Assembly (NCBI GenBank): GCA_905215115.1
Contig: CAJMOP010000001.1
Coordinates: forward strand, 2,797 to 66,796
Length of the DNA: 64,000 bases
Source of the DNA: an uncultured bacterium
GTDB lineage: Bacteria; Actinomycetota; Coriobacteriia; Coriobacteriales; Coriobacteriaceae
Reading direction: 5' to 3'
This document shows, piece by piece, positions 4,049 to 49,654 of this stretch. The notes beneath the pieces are model-generated. The model searched no databases, was not told where the DNA came from, and was given only the letters and a program-made list of their open reading frames with translations. The position numbers and the translations under genes are program-made. The first letter of the stretch is position 1. The number at the start of each line of letters is the position of its first letter.

Positions 4049-4879
4049 TTAGGCCTCGTCGGTCTCGTGCGGGGTAATAGCCTCGACGGCAGAGACCGCC
4101 TTGGGCAACATGCCATCGGGCAGCGCGGTCTCGACCTCGCCCTTATCGCAGGCCTCGGCGAGTGCCGGATTAATGGGAAGCTGGCCCAAGATGTCGAGGT
4201 TATAGCGCTCTGCGACCTCGGGGAGCTTGCTCTTGCCAAAGACCTCGATCTTCTTGCCGCAGTCGGGGCACTCAATATAGCTCATGTTCTCGACAATGCC
4301 CAGAATGGGGACGTTCATCTTCTCGGCCATGTTGACCGCCTTGGCGACGATCATCGAGACCAGATCCTGCGGGCTCGTGACGATGACGATGCCGTCGACC
4401 GGCAGCGACTGGAAGACGGTGAGCGCGACGTCGCCTGTTCCCGGAGGCATGTCGACCAGCAGGTAGTCGATGGGGCCCCACGAGGTCTCGCTCCAGAACT
4501 GCCTAATGGCGCCTGCGATGACCGGACCGCGCCAAAGGACGGGGTCGGTCTCGTTTTGGAGCAGCAGGTTGGAGCTCATGACCTTGACGCCGTGCTCGGA
4601 GATTTCGGGCAGCATAAGGTTGCCAAGGGCATGGACGTGGCGTCCACTCATACCGAACATCTTGGGGATAGAGGGACCGGTGATGTCGGCATCGAGGACG
4701 CCGACCTTGTGGCCGTGACGGGCAAGCTCGGTGGCGATGGCACCGGTGACAAATGACTTGCCGACACCGCCCTTGCCGGAAAGCACGGCGATGACGCGCT
4801 TGACCTCGGACAGCGTGTTCTCCTCAAATTGCGACGGCGACGTTTGTCCGCCGGCGGCCTGTGCGTGTTCGCAACCCAT
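4049..4879 (-). CDS. Mrp/NBP35/ApbC-family Fe-S cluster carrier ATPase
   Basis: Deviant Walker A LSGKGGVGKS, DADITGPS, and a C-terminal ECPDCGKK Cys pair. Start at ATG 4879, preceded by AAGGAG. Confidence 0.85.
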   Translation of the reverse strand: MGCEHAQAAGGQTSPSQFEENTLSEVKRVIAVLSGKGGVGKSFVTGAIATELARHGHKVGVLDADITGPSIPKMFGMSGRHVHALGNLMLPEISEHGVKVMSSNLLLQNETDPVLWRGPVIAGAIRQFWSETSWGPIDYLLVDMPPGTGDVALTVFQSLPVDGIVIVTSPQDLVSMIVAKAVNMAEKMNVPILGIVENMSYIECPDCGKKIEVFGKSKLPEVAERYNLDILGQLPINPALAEACDKGEVETALPDGMLPKAVSAVEAITPHETDEA

Positions 4880-5024
4880 GTATGACTCCTTTGTATATGC
4901 TGGGGCCGGGGCCCCGCGATGTGACACGAGCGTCATTGTACCCTCGTTTGCGAGCGGGAGTCATTTGCGATGCGTTTGGGCCGAGCGTGCTTGCAATACG
5001 ATGGGCCCAAGCGAATGGGCGGGC

Positions 5025-7178
5025 TTACTGAACTTTGCTGGCGAACTCGAGGTATTGCATGCGCTGCAGCTTGTCGATCGTCGAGGCGTAGGGGCTGTCT
5101 TCCGATTCCAAGTCGTAGCGCAGCCCGTCGGCACCGAGATAGCCGGCGACATTGATGGTGGGCACATCTGACCTTGTCGCAAGCAGGGCCTTTTGGTAAT
5201 TGGTGAGCGGGGCGCCGATCTTATTAAGGGTAATGGCTGCAATCTCGTTTGCCCCGACGGTGTCGTAGACGTTGAGCTCGGTATTGCCGGCGATCTCATA
5301 GTTAGCCCAGACGAGATATGTCGACTGATAGATACGGAAAGCGTGGCTTGCCGTATCTTCCTGAGGGTACAGCTCGTCGTTGAGAGTCGTTGCGGCGCTC
5401 GGCTGATGGTCGCCAAAAAAGACAAGAACAACCGGTCTGCCGATGTTGCGGAGCTCGTTGATAAAGTACTCGAGGTCCCGGTCGGATGCGTTGATGCAGG
5501 TGAGATAGGTGTTGAGCGCGCTGTTGGCGCCTTCGCTGGCTCCCTCGACCCAATAGTTTGTCAGCTCTTCGGCGGGAACGGTGCCATAGTCGTAGCCGCC
5601 GTGATTTTGCATCGTGACGTCAAAGATGAACTGCGGCGCTTCGTCGGTTCTAAGCAGGTCGAGTATCTTGTCGTAGGTGGCGTAGTCGCATACGCCGGCA
5701 TGGTAATAGGGCGCACCTTCGAAATCGCCGATTGAAAGAAAGTCTCCAAAGCCCAGCTGCTGATAGATTTTATCTCGATGGTAGTTGACGGGGTTTTGCG
5801 GGTGCATAGCGGTAGTGGTATACCCAAGCTCTTTAAGGTCCTTTGCCAGGCTGTTTACGCCATTCATCTGATACAGCTGATAGGGGATCTTGCCTAATCC
5901 GACAAAGGCCGTTGTCGCTCCGGTCAAAAATTCGAATTCGGAGTTCGCCGTTCCGCCACCGGCGACCGAAGCGAGCATGGTGCCGCGAACAAGTGTGTCG
6001 GGAAGCGAGTTGTAGAATGCGGGGCCGGAGTACCCGGCCGCCTGGAGCTGCTCAAAGCACGAAAGGTCGCTAAAACTCTCGTTCATGACGGCAACAATCG
6101 TCGGCTTGATTTCATTGAACTGGGCAACGGCCGCCGCGCGCTGTTCGCTCGAGCCATATGTGCTGTCGTAGACGGCGGCGAGCTCCTGCTCGATGCTCTG
6201 CGCCTCATCGGGCGTATAGTCTTCGGGCTTCTCAATGGGCAACTCGTTGACCATTTCGGTGAACGAAGTGATAAAACCCTGAGACGCATACGTGGTGATG
6301 GGCTGCCAACGGTCAAATCCAAAATCCAGCGCCTGCTCCAAGTCGATGTTGGAAAAGCCTGAGAGCCCCACAACGGTCACTAGCAGAAAAGCACAGAGGT
6401 TAGCGGCGATAGCGGGGAAGACATGGGTGGGCGTACGGAGCTTTCGCGGTCGGATGAGCGAAAGAAGCCCCAGGGAAATCTCCAGCAGGGCGAGAGAGGT
6501 TACGATTCCGGCGGTAAAGGTAAACTCGTATCCCTCGCTGACTTCCATTGCGGTGCCAAGGGCCAAGATATCGCTTGGCAGGATGGCTTCGCCTTTAAAC
6601 GTTATGACGAAGTGCTCGGCAATGCCAAGGATGCAGCAGACGACGGGCACGAGAGCCATGACGCCTCCATGACGCTGTCCCAGCAAATAAAGGGAGAGCA
6701 GAACCGTCGCGAGCAGCCCGACGGAAAACCCGAATGAGTTGGCGGGAATGCGATAGAACGTTTCGTTGCAGGCAATTTCGAGTGAAACGAACGAGAGCGC
6801 TGAAACAGCGGCGATGACAAGGATGTCACGGCAAATACAGGCAACCGTTCCCGTCGCAAGGTCGGTTTGGTCGATAAGTCCCGAAACCAAGGGCTCGACA
6901 AGAAGCATGACGGCGACAGCACCGAGCGCCGAATAAGAAAGGATCCATAGGGAGCTGCCCTCATTTACGAGCAATTGATTCGTAATCCATGCAGCTACCA
7001 CGCCGAGCGGGACGAGGAGCGTCGCGCACCAAAAGACGCGGGCAATGGGTGGCTTTTCGTTGCGTTTGATTGAAAAATACACGCGCACGACGACGGCGGC
7101 CACGATAAGGACGGCGATGAATATGGGCAGATTGGCCATGTCGCTCGAAGTGATTTCAAGGGGGATATCTTCGGTCAT
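5025..7178 (-). CDS. LTA synthase / sulfatase-family membrane protein (phosphoglycerol-transferase-like)
   Basis: Multi-TM N-terminal half plus a large extracytoplasmic alkaline-phosphatase/sulfatase-like domain. Start at ATG 7178 (MTEDIPL), preceded by GAGGAA. Confidence 0.7.
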   Translation of the reverse strand: MTEDIPLEITSSDMANLPIFIAVLIVAAVVVRVYFSIKRNEKPPIARVFWCATLLVPLGVVAAWITNQLLVNEGSSLWILSYSALGAVAVMLLVEPLVSGLIDQTDLATGTVACICRDILVIAAVSALSFVSLEIACNETFYRIPANSFGFSVGLLATVLLSLYLLGQRHGGVMALVPVVCCILGIAEHFVITFKGEAILPSDILALGTAMEVSEGYEFTFTAGIVTSLALLEISLGLLSLIRPRKLRTPTHVFPAIAANLCAFLLVTVVGLSGFSNIDLEQALDFGFDRWQPITTYASQGFITSFTEMVNELPIEKPEDYTPDEAQSIEQELAAVYDSTYGSSEQRAAAVAQFNEIKPTIVAVMNESFSDLSCFEQLQAAGYSGPAFYNSLPDTLVRGTMLASVAGGGTANSEFEFLTGATTAFVGLGKIPYQLYQMNGVNSLAKDLKELGYTTTAMHPQNPVNYHRDKIYQQLGFGDFLSIGDFEGAPYYHAGVCDYATYDKILDLLRTDEAPQFIFDVTMQNHGGYDYGTVPAEELTNYWVEGASEGANSALNTYLTCINASDRDLEYFINELRNIGRPVVLVFFGDHQPSAATTLNDELYPQEDTASHAFRIYQSTYLVWANYEIAGNTELNVYDTVGANEIAAITLNKIGAPLTNYQKALLATRSDVPTINVAGYLGADGLRYDLESEDSPYASTIDKLQRMQYLEFASKVQ

Positions 7179-22427: not shown

Positions 22428-23348
22428 GTGGCAACTCAGAAATTCACCGGCGTTATCCCTCCCGTCGTTGTTCCCGATACCGAAGATCACCAGCTCGACG
22501 TTGCCTCCTTTGAGCGCAGCATCAACCGCATGATCGATGCCGGCGTCGATGGCCTGTTCTTCTTGGGATCCTCGGGCGAGGTCGTCTTCTCCACCGACGA
22601 GCGCCGTCGCCAGATTATCGCCGAGGCCGTTCGTATCGTCGACCACCGCGTTCCCGTTCTGGTCGGCATCATCGATACCGAGACCGAGCGCATGATCGAG
22701 CACGGCAAGGTCGCCCAGGAGCTGGGCGCCGATGCCCTCGTCGCCACCTGCCCGTTCTATGCCCTGCAGGGCATGACCGAGGTCGAGGAGCACTTCCGCA
22801 TCCTGCACGAGGAGCTCGACCTGCCCATCTTTGCCTATGACATTCCCGTGTGCGTCCACACCAAGCTCCCCTGGAAGCTCCTTGCCAAGCTCGGCGCCGA
22901 GGGCGTTCTGGCCGGCGTCAAGGATTCCTCGGGTGATGACATCTCGTTCCGCTACCTCGTTCAGGAGAACGAGAAGAACGGCCATCCGATGAGCATCCTC
23001 ACCGGTCACGAGGTTGTTGTCGACGGCGCTTACCTTGGTGGCGCCGACGGTTCCGTTCCGGGTCTCGCCAACGTTGAGCCCGAGGGCTACGTGCGTCAGT
23101 GGAAGGCCGCCCAGGCTGGTGACTGGGCTACCGTCAAGGCCGAGCAGGATCGCCTCAATGAGATTTCGCACATCTGGGATGTCACCTCGGGCGTTCAGGG
23201 CTATGCCGGTGGCGTCGGCGCCTTCAAGACCGCTATGAACCTCATGGGTATCTTTGACAGCCCGACCATGCCGCGCCCGGTGAAGGCCATGACTGGCGAG
23301 AACGTCGAGGCGATTCGCAAGGTCCTTCAGGACAACGGTCTCCTGTAA
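22428..23348 (+). CDS. nanA: N-acetylneuraminate lyase (DHDPS/NAL family)
   Basis: Motifs GSSGE, TCPFY and Schiff-base Lys context GVKDSSGD. GTG 22428 follows AAGGAG. The NanA versus DapA call rests on nanK/nanE context. Confidence 0.7.
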   Translation: MATQKFTGVIPPVVVPDTEDHQLDVASFERSINRMIDAGVDGLFFLGSSGEVVFSTDERRRQIIAEAVRIVDHRVPVLVGIIDTETERMIEHGKVAQELGADALVATCPFYALQGMTEVEEHFRILHEELDLPIFAYDIPVCVHTKLPWKLLAKLGAEGVLAGVKDSSGDDISFRYLVQENEKNGHPMSILTGHEVVVDGAYLGGADGSVPGLANVEPEGYVRQWKAAQAGDWATVKAEQDRLNEISHIWDVTSGVQGYAGGVGAFKTAMNLMGIFDSPTMPRPVKAMTGENVEAIRKVLQDNGLL

Positions 23349-23519
23349 AGCTTCCCCAGGCACCCGATCTTGGGGCTCAAGTGGTCGGGCGTGACCCATT
23401 AGGTCAACGCCCGACCACTTTCACCCCAACCTCGGGCACCTGGGAAACCTTTACCAAGTTGCGGCGATAACACCGCCTTCATTTCCTGTAGTTGTTATTT
23501 ATCTCCTAAGGAGAGCGAC

Positions 23520-38635: not shown

Positions 38636-39664
<1,029 letters not shown>

Positions 39665-39680
39665 TCGGTTGTTCTCGTCC

Positions 39681-39804
39681 GGGCCCGCCTGGTGTTACTT
39701 TTCAGAACGTCCTCGGACATGTCGGAAGCCCCGCTGCGCGCTACGCGCTGCGGGGCTTCCTCCGTCCTGCGGAATGTTCTGAAAAGCAACACCAGGGCGG
39801 GCCC
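39681..39804. repeat. Composite nested hairpin element E1 (124 nt)
   Basis: 28-bp outer stem (GGGCCCGCCTGGTGTTACTTTTCAGAAC / GTTCTGAAAAGCAACACCAGGGCGGGCCC) with one A:C mismatch and one bulge. Internal loops are GTCCTCGGACATGTC and TCCGTCCTGCGGAAT. Inner hairpin is GGAAGCCCCGC-T-GCGCG(CTA)CGCGC-T-GCGGGGCTTCC. Confidence 0.9.
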
Positions 39805-39870
39805 TGCGTTAACGCGGCAGAGGGGAGTGAGATTCCTTGATCGCTCACTTAATCTAATAGGAAAGTTAGT

Positions 39871-39925
39871 GAGGCCGGAGCTTTGGCTCCGGCCTCCCCA
39901 TATAAGGGCTCGGCTTTGCCGAGCC
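39871..39925. other. Two simple GC-rich hairpins in the spacer between E1 and E2
   Basis: GAGGCCGGAGC-TTTG-GCTCCGGCCTC (39871-39896) and GGCTCGGC-TTT-GCCGAGCC (39907-39925). Confidence 0.7.
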
Positions 39926-39985
39926 ACCAAATTTGCATCAGCCCCAGAACATGTTTGAGAACTGTGCCTGGAGTATGTGTTGGTA

Positions 39986-40110
39986 GGCCCCGAATCGGTG
40001 TTGCCTCCCGGCGCATTCCGCAGGGGGAGCGATATTTTGCAGCACGAAGTGCGTAGCAAAATATCGCCCATGCCCGAGGACGCGCCGGGAGGCAACACCG
40101 ATTCGGGGCC
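39986..40110. repeat. Composite nested hairpin element E2 (125 nt), inverted relative to E1
   Basis: Perfect 29-bp outer stem (GGCCCCGAATCGGTGTTGCCTCCCGGCGC and its complement). Loops are ATTCCGCAGGGGGA and CCATGCCCGAGGAC. Inner stem is GCGATATTTTGC / GCAAAATATCGC. Confidence 0.9.
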
Positions 40111-40167
40111 GGGCATACGGATCTACCTGCGCATTTACAAATTCGTAAACTTTTTTGAAAAAAGTGC

Positions 40168-40197
40168 TTGCACAGTTCTCGAATCATAGGTTATTAT
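40168..40197 (+). promoter_or_regulatory. Candidate promoter of tRNA-Leu with an upstream A-tract
   Basis: TTTTTTGAAAAAAGTGC-TTGCAC-N18-TATTAT. It shares the AAAAAAGTNCTTGC architecture with the other two tRNA promoters. Confidence 0.55.
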
Positions 40198-40251: not shown

Positions 40252-40341
40252 GTCGGAGTGGCGGAATTGGCAGACGCGCTAGCTTGAGGTGCTAGTGACC
40301 GCTTTTTGGTCATGCGGGTTCAAGTCCCGCCTCCGACACCA
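40252..40341 (+). tRNA. tRNA-Leu (anticodon GAG), CCA encoded
   Basis: Acceptor GTCGGAG/CTCCGAC, anticodon arm CTAGC-TTGAGGT-GCTAG, long variable arm, and T-arm GCGGG-TTCAAGT-CCCGC. Confidence 0.9.
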
Positions 40342-43676: not shown

Positions 43677-43752
43677 GCGGACATGGCTCAGTTGGTAGAG
43701 CACAACCTTGCCAAGGTTGGGGTCGCGGGTTCGAGCCCCGTTGTCCGCTCCA
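43677..43752 (+). tRNA. tRNA-Gly (anticodon GCC), copy 1
   Basis: Acceptor GCGGACA/TGTCCGC, anticodon arm CAACC-TTGCCAA-GGTTG, and T-arm GCGGG-TTCGAGC-CCCGT. CCA encoded. Confidence 0.95.
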
Positions 43753-43786
43753 TTGCATTTCCGGACCGTTTAGGCGGTCCTTTTTA

Positions 43787-43860
43787 GGCGAAGTGGCCAA
43801 GTGGTAAGGCAGAGGCCTGCAAAGCCTTTACCCCCGGTTCGAATCCGGGCTTCGCCTCCA
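43787..43860 (+). tRNA. tRNA-Cys (anticodon GCA)
   Basis: Acceptor GGCGAAG/CTTCGCC, anticodon loop CTGCAAA, and T-arm CCCGG-TTCGAAT-CCGGG. CCA encoded. Confidence 0.9.
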
Positions 43861-43902
43861 GGCAACATCCGGGCGCTCCGGCGCCCGTTTTGTTTTACAT
43901 AT

Positions 43903-43978
43903 GCGGACATGGCTCAGTTGGTAGAGCACAACCTTGCCAAGGTTGGGGTCGCGGGTTCGAGCCCCGTTGTCCGCTCCA
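43903..43978 (+). tRNA. tRNA-Gly (anticodon GCC), copy 2
   Basis: 76/76 identical to copy 1. Confidence 0.95.
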
Positions 43979-43986
43979 ACTATCTT

Positions 43987-44013
43987 ACGCGGTTCTAACG
44001 AACCGCGTTTTTT
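43987..44013 (+). terminator. Rho-independent terminator after the tRNA cluster
   Basis: ACGCGGTTC-TAAC-GAACCGCGT followed by TTTTTT. Confidence 0.8.
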
Positions 44014-44310
44014 GTTGACGCTGCGCGGGCCCCGGGCACCCCATCTTGCCCCTCAATCGTCGGTCGCGTACATAAAGTACGCTTCCCTCCTCTTTCGCGG
44101 CAACCTGGGGCACCCGGAGCCCGCTCGCTGTCGTGGCCGGGGAGTAAGTCTTCCGTTCTTTTCACTAATCGATCGATTCGTCCCAGGAGGCTCGAACCCG
44201 AGAGGGAGCGAGCGTTTTGGGGCGTGGCTGTGACGTTTGCCGCGAATGTCCGCTTTGGGCGTATCATCGTGGGCATCTCGCAAAACCTCGTTGCAAGGGA
44301 GACTCATCCC

Positions 44311-46044
44311 ATGGCTACAGAAAAGTCCTCGTCGCGCCCATGGATGTCCGATGCCGCGATCTATCAGATCTACCCGCGCTCGTTTAAGGATTCGACTGGT
44401 TCGGGTCTGGGCGATATCGCGGGCATTACCCAGCAGATGGACTATCTTGAGCGGCTGGGTATCGAGGCCATCTGGCTGAGCCCGTTTTACCCATCGCCTC
44501 TTGTTGATGGCGGCTATGATGTGGCGGGCTACTGCGATGTCGACCCACGTCTCGGGTCGCTTGACGACTTCGATGACATGATCGCTGCGGCTCACGCGCA
44601 CGGCATCAAGGTCATCGTCGACATCGTGCCCAACCATTCGTCCAACCAGCACCCCTGGTTCAAAGCCGCTCTTGCCGCCGGCCCCGGATCACCCGAGCGC
44701 GCCCGTTATATCTTCCGCGATGGTCGCGGCGAGCACGGCGAGCTGCCTCCCACCAATTGGAATGCCAACTTTGGCGGCCCCGCCTGGACGCGCGTCGCGG
44801 ACGGTCAGTGGTATCTGCACATGTTTACGCCCGAGCAGCCGGACTTTGACTGGTCGTGTCCCGAGGTTCATGCGTTCTTTTGCGACGTCCTGGCGTTTTG
44901 GAGCGATCGAGGCGTCGATGGCTTTCGCATTGATGTGGCGCACGGTCTCGCCAAGGATCTCGACCGCGATGACCTCGACCGGTGGCATCTCGCCGAGGGC
45001 GATGACATGGTTGAGGACGGCACCCATCCGCTGTGGGACCGCAACGAGGTCCATGAGATCTATCGCGAGTGGCGCCGCGTGTTCGACCGTTATGATCCGC
45101 CGCGCAGCGCCGTTGCCGAGGCGTGGGTTCTGCCCGAGCGCCAGTATCTCTACGCACGCCCCAGCGAGCTTGGCCAGACATTCAACTTTGAGTTCGCCAA
45201 GGCCACTTGGACCTATGATGACATGCACGCTGCAATCGAGAAGGGCTTGAAGGCGGCCATCGAATCCGGTTCCGCCTCGACCTGGGTACTCTCCAACCAC
45301 GACGTGCCGCGCGTGGCGACACGCTATGCCCTGCCGCAAATCAAGGCGACGCGCTACCATCAGATTGCGCTCGACTGGCTCTTACGCGACGGGTCGTCTT
45401 ATGACGAGGACCGTGAACTCGGCGAGCGCCGCGCGCGGGCAGCCCTTTTGCTTGAGTTGGCGCTTCCGGGCTCGGCATACGTGTATCAGGGTGAGGAGCT
45501 CGGCCTTTTTGAGGTGGCTGACATCCCGTGGGCTGCACTCGAAGATCCCACTGCGACCAATACGCACGGACCGAAGTGCGAGAAGGGGCGCGACGGCTGT
45601 CGTGTGCCCCTGCCGTGGGTGGCAGCGGACGATCCCGCGCAGGGCGGATCGTTTGGGTTTTCACCGGCGGACGCCGATGCGGCGCCCCATCTGCCACAGC
45701 CTGCATGGTTTTCCGATTACGCTGCCGATAGGGAAGAAGCGGACCCGGCATCGATGCTTGCGTTCTATCGCGACGCCCTCTGGCTGCGGCGCAAGCTGCG
45801 CGGGTGCGCCAACGATCTTGCGTGGCTCGATCTTGACGGGTGCACCGGCCTTGCGGATGGTGCCGAGGGCGCTGAGGGCGGCGTCATCGCCTATCGCCGC
45901 GACAACGGCTGGGCGTGTGTGACGAACTTCGGTGCAGCACCCGTGGAGCTGCCGGCGGGTAGGGTCCTGCTCACCTCATCACCGCTTGCAGATGGCAGGC
46001 TCGCGCAGGACAGCTCTGCCTGGATCATGCTCGCTGAGTTGTAG
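44311..46044 (+). CDS. GH13 alpha-glucosidase (oligo-1,6-glucosidase / trehalose-6-phosphate-hydrolase-like)
   Basis: The four GH13 regions are present: VDIVPNHSS, GVDGFRIDVAHGL, AVAEAWV and LSNHDVPR. N-terminal IYQIYPRSFKDS. Confidence 0.9.
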   Translation: MATEKSSSRPWMSDAAIYQIYPRSFKDSTGSGLGDIAGITQQMDYLERLGIEAIWLSPFYPSPLVDGGYDVAGYCDVDPRLGSLDDFDDMIAAAHAHGIKVIVDIVPNHSSNQHPWFKAALAAGPGSPERARYIFRDGRGEHGELPPTNWNANFGGPAWTRVADGQWYLHMFTPEQPDFDWSCPEVHAFFCDVLAFWSDRGVDGFRIDVAHGLAKDLDRDDLDRWHLAEGDDMVEDGTHPLWDRNEVHEIYREWRRVFDRYDPPRSAVAEAWVLPERQYLYARPSELGQTFNFEFAKATWTYDDMHAAIEKGLKAAIESGSASTWVLSNHDVPRVATRYALPQIKATRYHQIALDWLLRDGSSYDEDRELGERRARAALLLELALPGSAYVYQGEELGLFEVADIPWAALEDPTATNTHGPKCEKGRDGCRVPLPWVAADDPAQGGSFGFSPADADAAPHLPQPAWFSDYAADREEADPASMLAFYRDALWLRRKLRGCANDLAWLDLDGCTGLADGAEGAEGGVIAYRRDNGWACVTNFGAAPVELPAGRVLLTSSPLADGRLAQDSSAWIMLAEL

Positions 46045-46145
46045 GGGGCCTCTTGCGGCGAGCTTGCGTTTGCCTACACCTTCCGTGGTGGCTGATGTCT
46101 TCGCGAGGTTCGCGAGGGCGTCGCAAAACTTTTCAAAAAAAGTTC

Positions 46146-46174
46146 TTGCATTTGGGTGGATCATCCCGTATATT
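46146..46174 (+). promoter_or_regulatory. Candidate promoter of the tRNA Gly-Val pair
   Basis: TTTTCAAAAAAAGTTC-TTGCAT-N17-TATATT, ending 12 nt before the tRNA 5' end. Confidence 0.6.
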
Positions 46175-46186
46175 AAATCCTCGCAG

Positions 46187-46262
46187 GCGGACATGGCTCA
46201 GTTGGTAGAGCACAACCTTGCCAAGGTTGGGGTCGCGGGTTCGAGCCCCGTTGTCCGCTCCA
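46187..46262 (+). tRNA. tRNA-Gly (anticodon GCC), copy 3
   Basis: 76/76 identical to copies 1 and 2. Confidence 0.95.
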
Positions 46263-46265
46263 TTT

Positions 46266-46340
46266 GGGCGTTTAGCTCAGGGGGAGAGCGCTTCCCTGAC
46301 ACGGAAGAGGTCAGAAGTTCAAATCTTCTAACGCCCACCA
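46266..46340 (+). tRNA. tRNA-Val (anticodon GAC)
   Basis: Acceptor GGGCGTT/AACGCCC, anticodon arm CTTCC-CTGACAC-GGAAG, and T-arm AGAAG-TTCAAAT-CTTCT. CCA encoded. Confidence 0.9.
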
Positions 46341-49254: not shown

Positions 49255-49392
49255 GGCCGCCCCGTAGCGAGGCCCCGGACCTTTACTCGCTATTTCGGAC
49301 AGTCCTGGCTCACGACGGAGGCGCCACTGGCGCCTCCTGTTCGTGCGGAACTCATATCGAGCAAAGGTCCGGGGCCTCGCTACGGGGCGGCC
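49255..49392. repeat. Composite nested hairpin element E3 (138 nt), same family and orientation as E1
   Basis: 35-bp outer stem (GGCCGCCCCGTAGCGAGGCCCCGGACCTTTACTCG / CGAGCAAAGGTCCGGGGCCTCGCTACGGGGCGGCC) with one A:C mismatch. The loops contain TTTCGGACAGTCC and CGTGCGGAAC. Inner hairpin is GGAGGCGCC-ACT-GGCGCCTCC. Confidence 0.9.
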
Positions 49393-49570: not shown

Positions 49571-49654
49571 GAGGCCGGGACATATCGTCCCGCCCGCAGT
49601 TTCGCAGGCCGAAGGCCGAGAATGTTTGAGGACGGGATGATATGTCCCGGCCTC
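49571..49654. repeat. Composite nested hairpin element E4 (84 nt), same family and orientation as E2
   Basis: 22-bp outer stem (GAGGCCGGGACATATCGTCCCG / CGGGATGATATGTCCCGGCCTC) with one G:T. Loops are CCCGCAGTTTCGCA and GAGAATGTTTGAGGA. Inner hairpin is GGCC-GAA-GGCC. It ends 15 nt before the nrdG ATG. Confidence 0.8.

Follow-up and report, generated by a model that had tools for sequence, protein, structure and literature searches.

A dispersed family of nested imperfect palindromes behind stop codons in Collinsella and Enorma

What are the two large, oppositely oriented hairpins that follow an oppF-like gene on contig CAJMOP010000001.1 of an uncultured member of the Coriobacteriaceae (GenBank assembly GCA_905215115.1)? 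We analysed a 64-kb stretch of this contig (positions 2,797 to 66,796; hereafter the window), of which a preliminary description, made from the sequence alone, had named the two hairpins E1 and E2 (Table 1) and had seen in them conserved internal loops set between stems that differ from one element to the other. We find that E1 and E2 belong to a repeat family with at least 17 distinct loci in Collinsella and Enorma. At a probability of roughly 0.5, our reading is that they are dispersed, nested imperfect-palindromic 'gene-end hairpins', resembling REP (repetitive extragenic palindromic) elements and BIMEs (bacterial interspersed mosaic elements) or the TRIT hairpins of Mycobacterium, which are maintained at the level of DNA, are carried in mRNA 3' ends, and have loops that are read by some factor.

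Both hairpins, each of about 125 nt, lie exactly where they had been placed. On either strand they fold at -96 to -108 kcal/mol, against about -51 kcal/mol for dinucleotide shuffles (z = -11.6 to -14.3, with 0 of 200 shuffles folding equally well), and a repeat finder gives pairs of arms of 28 nt and 17 nt in E1 and of 55 nt in E2. We call 'canonical' the strand that reads TTCCGCAGG...CCGAGGAC, which is the minus strand for E1 and the plus strand for E2; the gap from the first motif to the second is 49 nt in both. On this common strand E1 and E2 agree, fully or almost so, in the asymmetric loops CATTCCGCAGG and CATG(T/C)CCGAGGACG, as the preliminary description had said. ATGYYYGAGRAC matches the window exactly at four places, each of them intergenic: in E1, in a fragment within the spacer between the two elements, in E2, and at position 49622.

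Is this architecture peculiar to one locus? The DNA of the window is that of a Collinsella. One genome per GTDB species was scanned for the seed pattern TTCCGCAGG-N35-65-YCCGAGGAC, which occurs in at least 120 stretches; among the 120 matches listed, about 80 were from Collinsella (one of them labelled Coriobacteriaceae) and had the same architecture, the others being chance matches in coding regions. As a baseline for chance, the same pattern gave 57 matches in viral contigs, of which 0 were hairpins of this kind. A scan for long hairpins added two further members in the window, E3 and E4, between nrdD and a gene for an nrdG-like activase, and in all the window holds 4-5 copies. Since 600 kb of Collinsella sequence around the seeds contained just a handful of additional copies, and a 0.9-Mb C. 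aerofaciens record has five E1/E2-like places, the family is low in copy number. That record (PLSDB NZ_OY725717.1, 900 kb), entered as 'plasmid 6', has the genes ftsE and ftsX and is chromosomal in appearance; one of its five places adjoins IS21 transposase genes.

The claim that the helices covary holds up well. We aligned 22 non-redundant Collinsella copies without structural guidance; RNAalifold predicts 49 pairs, and at 41 of the 49 there are compensatory changes on both sides. Paired cells amount to 94.7%, compared with 68.6% when partners are shuffled, and the covariation score of 0.724 (0.224 shuffled, and reached in 0 of 500 shuffles) drops to 0.11-0.21 when partners are slid by 1-3 columns. 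In this 22-copy set the invariance of the loop motifs is imposed by the search pattern; independent support for loop conservation comes from E1 orthologues identified by synteny, from two sequences reached through OppF (L133 and L132; L numbers are our handles), and from elements that flank copies of an insertion sequence (IS). A covariance model, which the preliminary description had proposed as a check, scores E2 at 147.1 bits (plus strand) and E1 at 141.5 bits (minus strand); this model (R1) gives 57-65 bits for E1 and E2 on the non-canonical strand (E1 plus, 57), and about 36 bits for E3 and E4 (E4, 35.6), while a second model (R2) scores E4 at 50.9 bits. E-values reach 1e-38; for these models, built within this analysis, they are rough.

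Which parts of an element are shared and which are free to vary? It had been held that the outer stems share only short blocks and that the inner stems are unrelated, and here the alignment tells otherwise: the 19 outer-stem types have a common consensus, GGG-YTWRC-YTYCC, in the 18 nt nearest the core, and the stems of long-form copies are diverged homologues. The sole locus-specific portion is the foot of the outer stem, a GC-rich 10-12 bp. The apical part of the inner hairpin is likewise conserved, its canonical-strand end reading C-GAA-G or C-GTA-G (the latter on the minus strand of E1). In mRNA sense the loops, CGTCCTCGGACATG and CGTCCTGCGGAATG, repeat a single quasi-palindromic motif, CGTCCT(S)CGGAM (hereafter M), in direct orientation, and it is for this reason that the two loops pair imperfectly with each other. 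The junctions just beyond the outer stem resemble a split M (...CGTCC, then the hairpin, then TGCGTTAAC...), so that the architecture is self-similar. An extent of about 125 nt is right for the hairpins, but the elements extend further, with conserved junction motifs outside the outer stem.

At some loci a third layer of inverted repeats, specific to the locus, lies outside these junctions; it exceeds shuffled flanks (p < 0.01) at 6 of 22 loci. At E1 the last codons of oppF recur in inverted form downstream of the element (p = 0.000, the score being matched by 0 of 300 flank shuffles), and in Enorma (L132:2520-2660) the pairing of this repeat is kept by compensatory changes, GGAAACGCAC.../...GTGCGTTTCC vs GGAATCGCAC/GTGAGATTCC. 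At E2 the left flank repeats, in inverted form, the -35 region of the promoter of tRNA-Leu, forming a 14-nt inverted repeat (39954-39967/40170-40183; 93% complementary) of which both arms are conserved in 10/10 species compared. The solitary loop-like fragment that had been reported in the spacer (39945-39962) is present, but it overlaps the left arm of this repeat with the tRNA-Leu promoter region, and it also resembles the TGTTTGAG portion of the mini-core described below.

The elements are placed at gene ends in a consistent orientation. At 15 of 17 independent long-form loci a stop codon precedes the element by 8-35 nt, and the strand that would enter the mRNA is the same each time; for the element in general the distance is 0-35 nt. 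At these 15 loci the canonical 3' end points towards the stop, so a transcript of the upstream gene would contain the canonical strand in reverse complement. At 22 aligned junctions the stops before long-form elements are, by our own count, TAG in 13 cases, TAA in 5 and TGA in 1, a preference for TAG that is unexpected at 62% G+C, and three unrelated genes share the same ending, CTGTAGTCG.

A position behind stop codons is what one would expect if these were ordinary intrinsic terminators, or else look-alike chance palindromes, and an oppF homologue of C. tanakaei has a plain terminator (GGGCCGTCCC-ATCT-GGGGCGGCCC-TTTTT) where E1 would be (the downstream gene there is a different one, and orthology is uncertain). 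We nevertheless find this explanation scarcely credible. The hairpins have no U-tract, sequence conservation of their loops extends over more than 17 loci with the E-values given above, the pattern matches in viral contigs were all non-hairpin chance, and the covariation refutes it as well. A terminator scan of E1 and E2 returned spurious internal sites only, and canonical hairpin-plus-T-tract terminators exist elsewhere in the window. An ordinary terminator of this kind follows each gene of a tRNA cluster at 43677-46340 (Gly, Cys, Gly, Gly, Val), and the genome therefore also uses canonical terminators.

If they are not terminators, are the helices under selection as RNA? Strong covariation in long palindromes cannot on its own separate selection for RNA structure from palindrome correction at the level of DNA, and as a caution for method it does not by itself demonstrate RNA structure. 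Other signs have to be sought, and wobble is one of them. Over 70 distinct sequences the stem mismatches comprise 20 G·T, 20 A·C and 34 of transversion type; G·T and A·C being equal in number, the stems do not show the tolerance of wobble on one strand that an RNA helix should have. Mini-form elements have 6 G·T vs 12 A·C mismatches on the sense strand, and neither set of counts singles out a functional strand. G-U accounts for some 1.7% of paired cells. Selection on single pairs of a rod of -100 kcal/mol should, moreover, be weak.

A second sign is the mosaic history of the copies. Among E1 orthologues of ten Collinsella species the outer stem is kept by compensated substitutions, pairing being retained through double changes, and the inner hairpin occurs as three unrelated modules, with a fourth inner allele in L133. 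The swaps run exactly between the centres of the two M copies, which are direct repeats of one another (39709-39723 and 39761-39775) and at which the exchanged segments end. The inner module of E1 in the window is identical to that of a different locus (L002), and altogether 10 inner types combine with 19 outer types. Two loci with the same flanks (L002 and L035) have different elements, L035 also having a tandem partial copy, and in L010 the arms derive from two different copies. Copies are gained, lost or replaced as well: E2 has disappeared through a microhomology deletion in L123 and is missing in L133, and in other species the nrdD-nrdG spacer has a truncated E3/E4 fusion, other hairpins, or none. 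The oppF homologues of C. tanakaei and Enorma stand in a different gene context, and no clean empty site by which to define the element ends was found. The nrdD-nrdG spacer of C. tanakaei (L246:790-900) contains different palindromes with two copies of GGGAAAATAGGGACAGTCCCTATTTTCCC, and L245:670-900 contains a nested hairpin whose core is GGGCATGGCCTTAAGGCCTATGCCC. Gene-end hairpins with GGACAGTCC-like centres may therefore form a wider superfamily.

These observations bear on the explanation preferred in the preliminary description, namely a structured motif that acts at the level of RNA only, in cis, in 3' untranslated regions or between cistrons, and is bound by a conserved RNA-binding protein or nuclease. 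A fixed orientation right after stops in several phyla, and conserved internal loops and tip combined with freely covarying helices, are in its favour, and it has a precedent in TRIT, a stop-codon hairpin for which a double-stranded-RNA-binding factor has been proposed (PMC3152330). On the other hand G-U pairs are nearly missing and without strand bias, and a hairpin of -100 kcal/mol should leave selection on each pair too weak to hold Watson-Crick pairing at 95%. E2 and E4 run against the direction of local transcription, the shuffling of modules and the inverted copying of flanks take place on DNA, and there is no Rfam match; we think this explanation improbable. Of the earlier statement that E1 and E2 look like a structured RNA or a structure-recognised DNA site, the conserved loops and covarying helices thus stand, and do so over many copies, but the lean towards a discrete RNA does not, given the missing G·U strand bias, the module swaps, the turnover of copies and an IS110 element that uses one loop as a DNA target. 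A structure-recognised DNA site, with a position-specific role at mRNA 3' ends in addition, fits better.

The IS110 element in question was found in L127, where an IS110-family transposase gene (4130-5713; PF01548/PF02371; protein cluster of 14,171 member sequences) sits within E1. Ten further copies of this IS (L192-L201) all end in ...AATAGGAGCGT followed by CAGGACG..., and one of them (L193) is a clean insertion in another family member (ATTCCG/CA-IS-/CAGGACG), with which the junctions in L127 and L192 agree. Every IS junction examined falls at ATTCCG-CA-GGACG, the centre of motif M; the corresponding points in the window are TG in E1 and, by analogy, CA in E2 (Table 1). In the leader RNA of the IS, upstream of the transposase gene, ACAUUCCGC (equal to the left target flank) and AAUAGGAGC (equal to the right end of the IS) stand in loops, and these would look like the target and donor guides of a bridge RNA, by analogy with the guide organisation described for IS110 elements, including some that target REP hairpins (PMC11208160); hairpin-gated IS110 targeting of a REP has also been reported (bioRxiv 10.64898/2026.03.19.712850). 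With its fixed insertion at M and guide-like loops, the family thus behaves as REP elements do for IS621 and ISPpu10, and is a natural target repeat of an IS110-family bridge-RNA element.

One might then ask whether the hairpins exist owing to IS110, as dedicated landing pads or as its degenerate derivatives. The uniformity of all examined junctions, the guide-like ACAUUCCGC and AAUAGGAGC in the leader loops and the known IS110 elements that target REP hairpins (the same two reports) would agree with such an origin. It seems to us very improbable all the same, as the IS ends have no sequence in common with the hairpin interior and the core is present in phyla and contigs that have no IS110 gene within ±2.5 kb, which suggests that some genomes with the hairpin have no IS110 relative. 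Exploitation of a pre-existing repeat, as by IS621 with REP, is more plausible.

The core in fact reaches well beyond the Coriobacteriaceae. E4 and the Enorma copy downstream of oppF have an identical mini-core, CTCGGCCTTCGGCCTGCG, and a scan of metagenome contigs with TCCTCGGCCTTCGGCCTGCGRAA yielded 41 loci, on contigs of 0.42-0.69 G+C and from many non-gut samples. Proteins that flank them are exact matches to, or fall in 90%-identity clusters with, NCBI proteins from metagenome-assembled genomes (MAGs) of Candidatus Omnitrophota, Candidatus Binatia, Clostridiales and Enorma, the phylum labels of these contigs resting on MAG annotations. Across 27 distinct loci the conserved block is sharply bounded at about 42 nt, GCTC(A/G)(A/G)ACAGTCCTC-GGCCTTCGGCC-TGCGGAACTCGC. 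Enorma/Collinsella and the Clostridiales contig have another version of it, TCGCTNGTCCTC...TGCGGAATCGCTC. The core adjoins near-perfect stems of 17-27 bp that are unique to each locus (mean 21 bp, <1 mismatch). At 13 of about 20 loci from other taxa the mini-form stands just downstream of a stop in the same orientation, with 29-71 nt from the end of the open reading frame (ORF) to the start of the core, and there the hairpin starts, by our estimate, at most about 10 nt from the stop codon, the genes concerned being unrelated housekeeping genes. Related Omnitrophota genomes (L216 vs L247) have, at one orthologous site, a different hairpin with unrelated stems, which fills the gap of 65-107 nt between the same pair of genes; its loop resembles just the left part of the core. 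Model R2 covers the core alone, the stems being too variable for MAFFT to bring into register. In its alignment E2 is the mini-core plus a 49-nt apical insertion, and the long Collinsella elements are therefore apical expansions of a widespread mini-core module.

Among the neighbours of mini-form loci within ±2.5 kb no RAYT transposase was found, and no protein family recurs save one ORF6N/KilA-N-like protein. The latter lies 250-650 nt from the mini-core hairpin (L203, L236, L242, L238), in two contexts and with 56% identity, and its recurrence is possibly chance. The core is missing from Rfam, IMG/VR, INPHARED, PLSDB and the searchable literature.

Given this distribution, the elements could also be selfish and non-autonomous, of REPIN or PATE type, moved in trans by a HUH/Y1 transposase or by another recombinase that reads the folded loops, their location at gene ends merely reflecting tolerated or targeted insertion. 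They are multi-copy and dispersed, with presence, absence and replacement at orthologous sites; the sharply bounded core of about 42 nt, near-identical in four phyla, suggests horizontal spread; the stems have no G·U bias; and the nested, self-similar junctions could come from repeated insertion at M, the point used by IS110. The GNA triloop is very stable in DNA, and the C-G(A/T)A-G tip fits such a loop. Against this, no transposase lies near any copy examined, the elements are missing from phage and plasmid collections and have few copies (5 places in 0.9 Mb), many Collinsella species have E1 and E2 as stable orthologues, the ends are variable without target-site duplications that could be seen by eye, and there is a strong rule of orientation relative to the adjacent gene. 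We consider a selfish origin, both as to movement in trans and as to its account of the gene-end location, unlikely.

It is tempting to go further, and to see in the core (GCTCRRACAGTCCTC-GGCCTTCGGCC-TGCGGAACTCGC) the active part of a cross-phylum hairpin-cassette system that is mobile or recombining, is small and structure-specific, lands behind stops, acquires or makes the perfect stems of each locus through self-templated copying of nearby DNA in inverted form, is nested at M and is handled by an enzyme. We put this forward as a long shot. If true, it would mean a new mechanism by which palindromes arise and disperse, and not a variant of REP or of the miniature inverted-repeat transposable element (MITE), and nesting or exchange at the centre of M would explain the long Collinsella forms with their swappable inner modules.

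Returning to gene-end hairpins maintained as DNA, we hypothesize that the Watson-Crick complementarity of the arms is upheld by intrastrand template switching (quasi-palindrome correction) together with gene conversion seeded in the conserved core. Template switching in quasi-palindromes is a known route of arm correction. Conversion seeded in the core would explain why conservation decays from the tip to the foot, and occasional template switching beyond the foot would explain the inverted copies of flanking functional sequence. A trans-acting factor that reads the folded form would be the reason why selection retains the mismatched loops and the C-G(A/T)A-G tip. Co-transcribed with the upstream gene, the element would form an RNA hairpin of 45-60 bp, which may define or protect the mRNA 3' end, or may uncouple neighbouring cistrons such as nrdD and nrdG, and would not be a classical U-tract terminator.

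Several points weigh against this hypothesis. Two of the 17 loci, E2 and E4, are exceptions that are opposite in orientation and do not stand behind a gene end; they are the second members of head-to-head pairs (E1-181 nt-E2 and E3-178 nt-E4), each just upstream of the next promoter or ribosome-binding site, that of tRNA-Leu in the case of E2. After the hairpins there is no U-tract, the sequence past the foot being TGCGTTWACG or similar, and E3 and E4 lie within the nrdDG pair, where strong termination would do harm. The mechanism of correction on the DNA is one that we infer, and the evidence for a role in RNA consists of position and orientation. No trans-acting protein or transposase was identified, and no protein family recurs beside the copies. 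Finally, that different phyla should have an almost identical core is difficult to account for, and would require either a universal binding partner or horizontal mobility.

Table 1. Coordinates of the elements, their parts and adjoining features in the window
Feature	Position	Strand	Details
oppF-like ABC ATPase	38636..39664	+	stop codon 17 nt ahead of E1
Outermost inverted-repeat arm, in last oppF codons	39636..39652	+	pairs with 39827-39843; 17 nt, 94% complementary
E1, long-form element	39681..39804	mRNA-sense strand + (downstream of oppF); canonical strand minus	
E1 outer stem, 5' arm	39681..39708	+	pairs with 39776-39803; 28 nt, 86% complementary
E1 left copy of motif M, GTCCTCGGACATGTC	39709..39723	+	3' loop of the preliminary description
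E1 inner hairpin module	39724..39760	+	arms 39724-39740/39744-39760; 17 nt, 94% complementary
E1 right copy of motif M, TCCGTCCTGCGGAAT	39761..39775	+	IS110 insertion core TG at 39768-39769
E1 outer stem, 3' arm	39776..39803	+	from repeat finder
E1-E2 spacer, 181 nt	39805..39985		two small conserved hairpins, 39871-39896 and ~39904-39925
Outermost arm, inverted copy of oppF codons downstream of E1	39827..39843	+	pairs with 39636-39652
Solitary fragment and left inverted-repeat arm	39945..39967	+	partner 40170-40183 (tRNA-Leu promoter)
E2, long-form element	39986..40110	canonical strand +	arms 39986-40040/40056-40110
E2 5' loop, CATTCCGCAGGGGGA	40014..40028	+	IS110 core CA at 40021-40022, predicted by analogy
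E2 3' loop, CCATGCCCGAGGAC	40068..40081	+	
tRNA-Leu(GAG)	40252..40341	+	promoter-like site 40169-40197, downstream of E2
E3, diverged member	49255..49392	+	12 nt after nrdD stop (nrdD by Pfam); 39-nt arms, 95% complementary
E4, mini form	49571..49654	canonical strand +	foot adjoins nrdG ribosome-binding site
Mini-core, CTCGGCCTTCGGCCTGCG	49603..49620	-	identical in Enorma and in contigs from other phyla

Some further features of the window are worth recording. The loop of the second spacer hairpin is flipped in other Collinsella species (GGCTTTGCC vs GGCAAAGCC), which looks like stem-mediated loop inversion, and the spacer itself might encode a small RNA. A 171-aa ORF on the minus strand (39601-40116) spans E1, the spacer and E2; it has been called as a gene and occurs in several public contigs, has no Pfam match, and is almost certainly spurious. 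Elsewhere (23345-23454) an imperfect hairpin of 110 nt starts at a stop codon, with 48-nt arms that are 81% complementary. The family model gives this hairpin only 19 bits, and it could be a distant relative or could belong to a different family of gene-end hairpins.

If the hypothesis of DNA-maintained gene-end hairpins holds, then Collinsella, an abundant genus of the human gut, and Enorma own a REP/TRIT-like system that marks gene ends. Such elements probably shape mRNA 3' ends, and they are points of recombination, with chimeric arms, deletions and abundant IS110 insertions; in annotation they are presently represented in public contigs by the spurious 171-aa gene. The same tip of about 42 nt is found behind stop codons, within unrelated perfect stems, in four phyla or more (by MAG labels Actinomycetota, Omnitrophota, Binatia and Bacillota/Clostridiales). 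This points to a widely shared hairpin-reading factor, or to a new way in which small palindromes spread and have their stems rebuilt.

How does the family compare with what is known? Only tRNAs reach the Rfam gathering score in the window, permissive scans giving miRNA-precursor-type hairpins far below threshold, and five metagenome loci had no Rfam matches. Literature searches by topic and by sequence string returned nothing that matched, nor was there a match to the Collinsella-1 motif. A phage or plasmid origin was set aside with zero real matches in IMG/VR, INPHARED and PLSDB, and the stems, taken as spacer-like matches to phages or plasmids, matched nothing besides Collinsella itself. 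A retron msr-msd was rejected, there being no reverse transcriptase nearby and symmetric flanks, and so was a recoding hairpin of SECIS/PYLIS type, which had been considered as TAG stops are frequent, because stems that evolve by compensation and acquire indels could not go on encoding protein. Weak and short resemblances, to a hairpin-ribozyme substrate (8-nt identity, ACAGUCCU), boxA-like GCUC..AACA, boxC/NusA-like GAACUC, domain IV of the signal recognition particle RNA, parS and a LexA box, were not used. With the stop-codon position of an intrinsic terminator and without its U-tract, and failing the defining tests of REP/RAYT, the classical MITE, attC and all Rfam families, the elements are members of none of these. 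The statement that they match no known family can accordingly be kept: the family of nested gene-end palindromes is previously undescribed in Rfam, phages, plasmids and the searched literature.

Integron attC sites are likewise recognised as a folded single strand with extrahelical bases and have variable stems, but they conserve the stem base (R''/R' boxes RYYYAAC / GTTRRRY) and form arrays of one orientation beside intI. Here stem bases are not conserved, there are no R boxes and no arrays, and the elements lie in opposite orientations between housekeeping genes. That E1 and E2 are not simple MITEs, as had been argued, is clear from the foot of the stem, which is the most variable part, and no target-site duplication or direct repeat was seen by eye at 22 aligned junctions. 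The same holds against the Correia/NEMIS repeats of Neisseria and the ERIC repeats of enterobacteria, which are also palindromic and of 100-150 bp; these have conserved terminal inverted repeats and target-site duplications, whereas in our elements the termini are the least conserved part. Correia/NEMIS and ERIC elements fold in mRNA and alter its processing or stability according to orientation.

Closer are REP, BIME and REPIN elements, which are extragenic imperfect palindromes in 3' untranslated regions or between cistrons, often in inverted pairs, mosaic, and targets of IS110. They differ in being 20-40 nt long, present in hundreds of copies, linked to RAYT, and conserved in a stem with 5' GTAG; ours are of 85-165 nt, low in copy, with variable stems and conserved loops, and their 5' junction reads YGYAGG, with GTAG in some copies only. 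Effects of REPs on mRNA stability, and on translation near the stop, are described (PMC3116915, PMC3337134, PMC11208160). TRIT of Mycobacterium, the nearest precedent, is likewise an actinobacterial, multi-copy, palindromic hairpin, conserved in sequence and structure and held at a narrow distance from stop codons, for which a binding factor is suspected (Gardner et al. 2011, PMC3152330). It is reported as restricted to Mycobacterium and has a conserved stem, whereas in the present family the stems vary freely, conservation is found in the loops and tip, the elements are nested and the core crosses phyla. The Collinsella elements are themselves conserved, multi-copy and narrowly spaced from stop codons, and would in this sense be TRIT-like gene-end hairpins, by a purely functional analogy.

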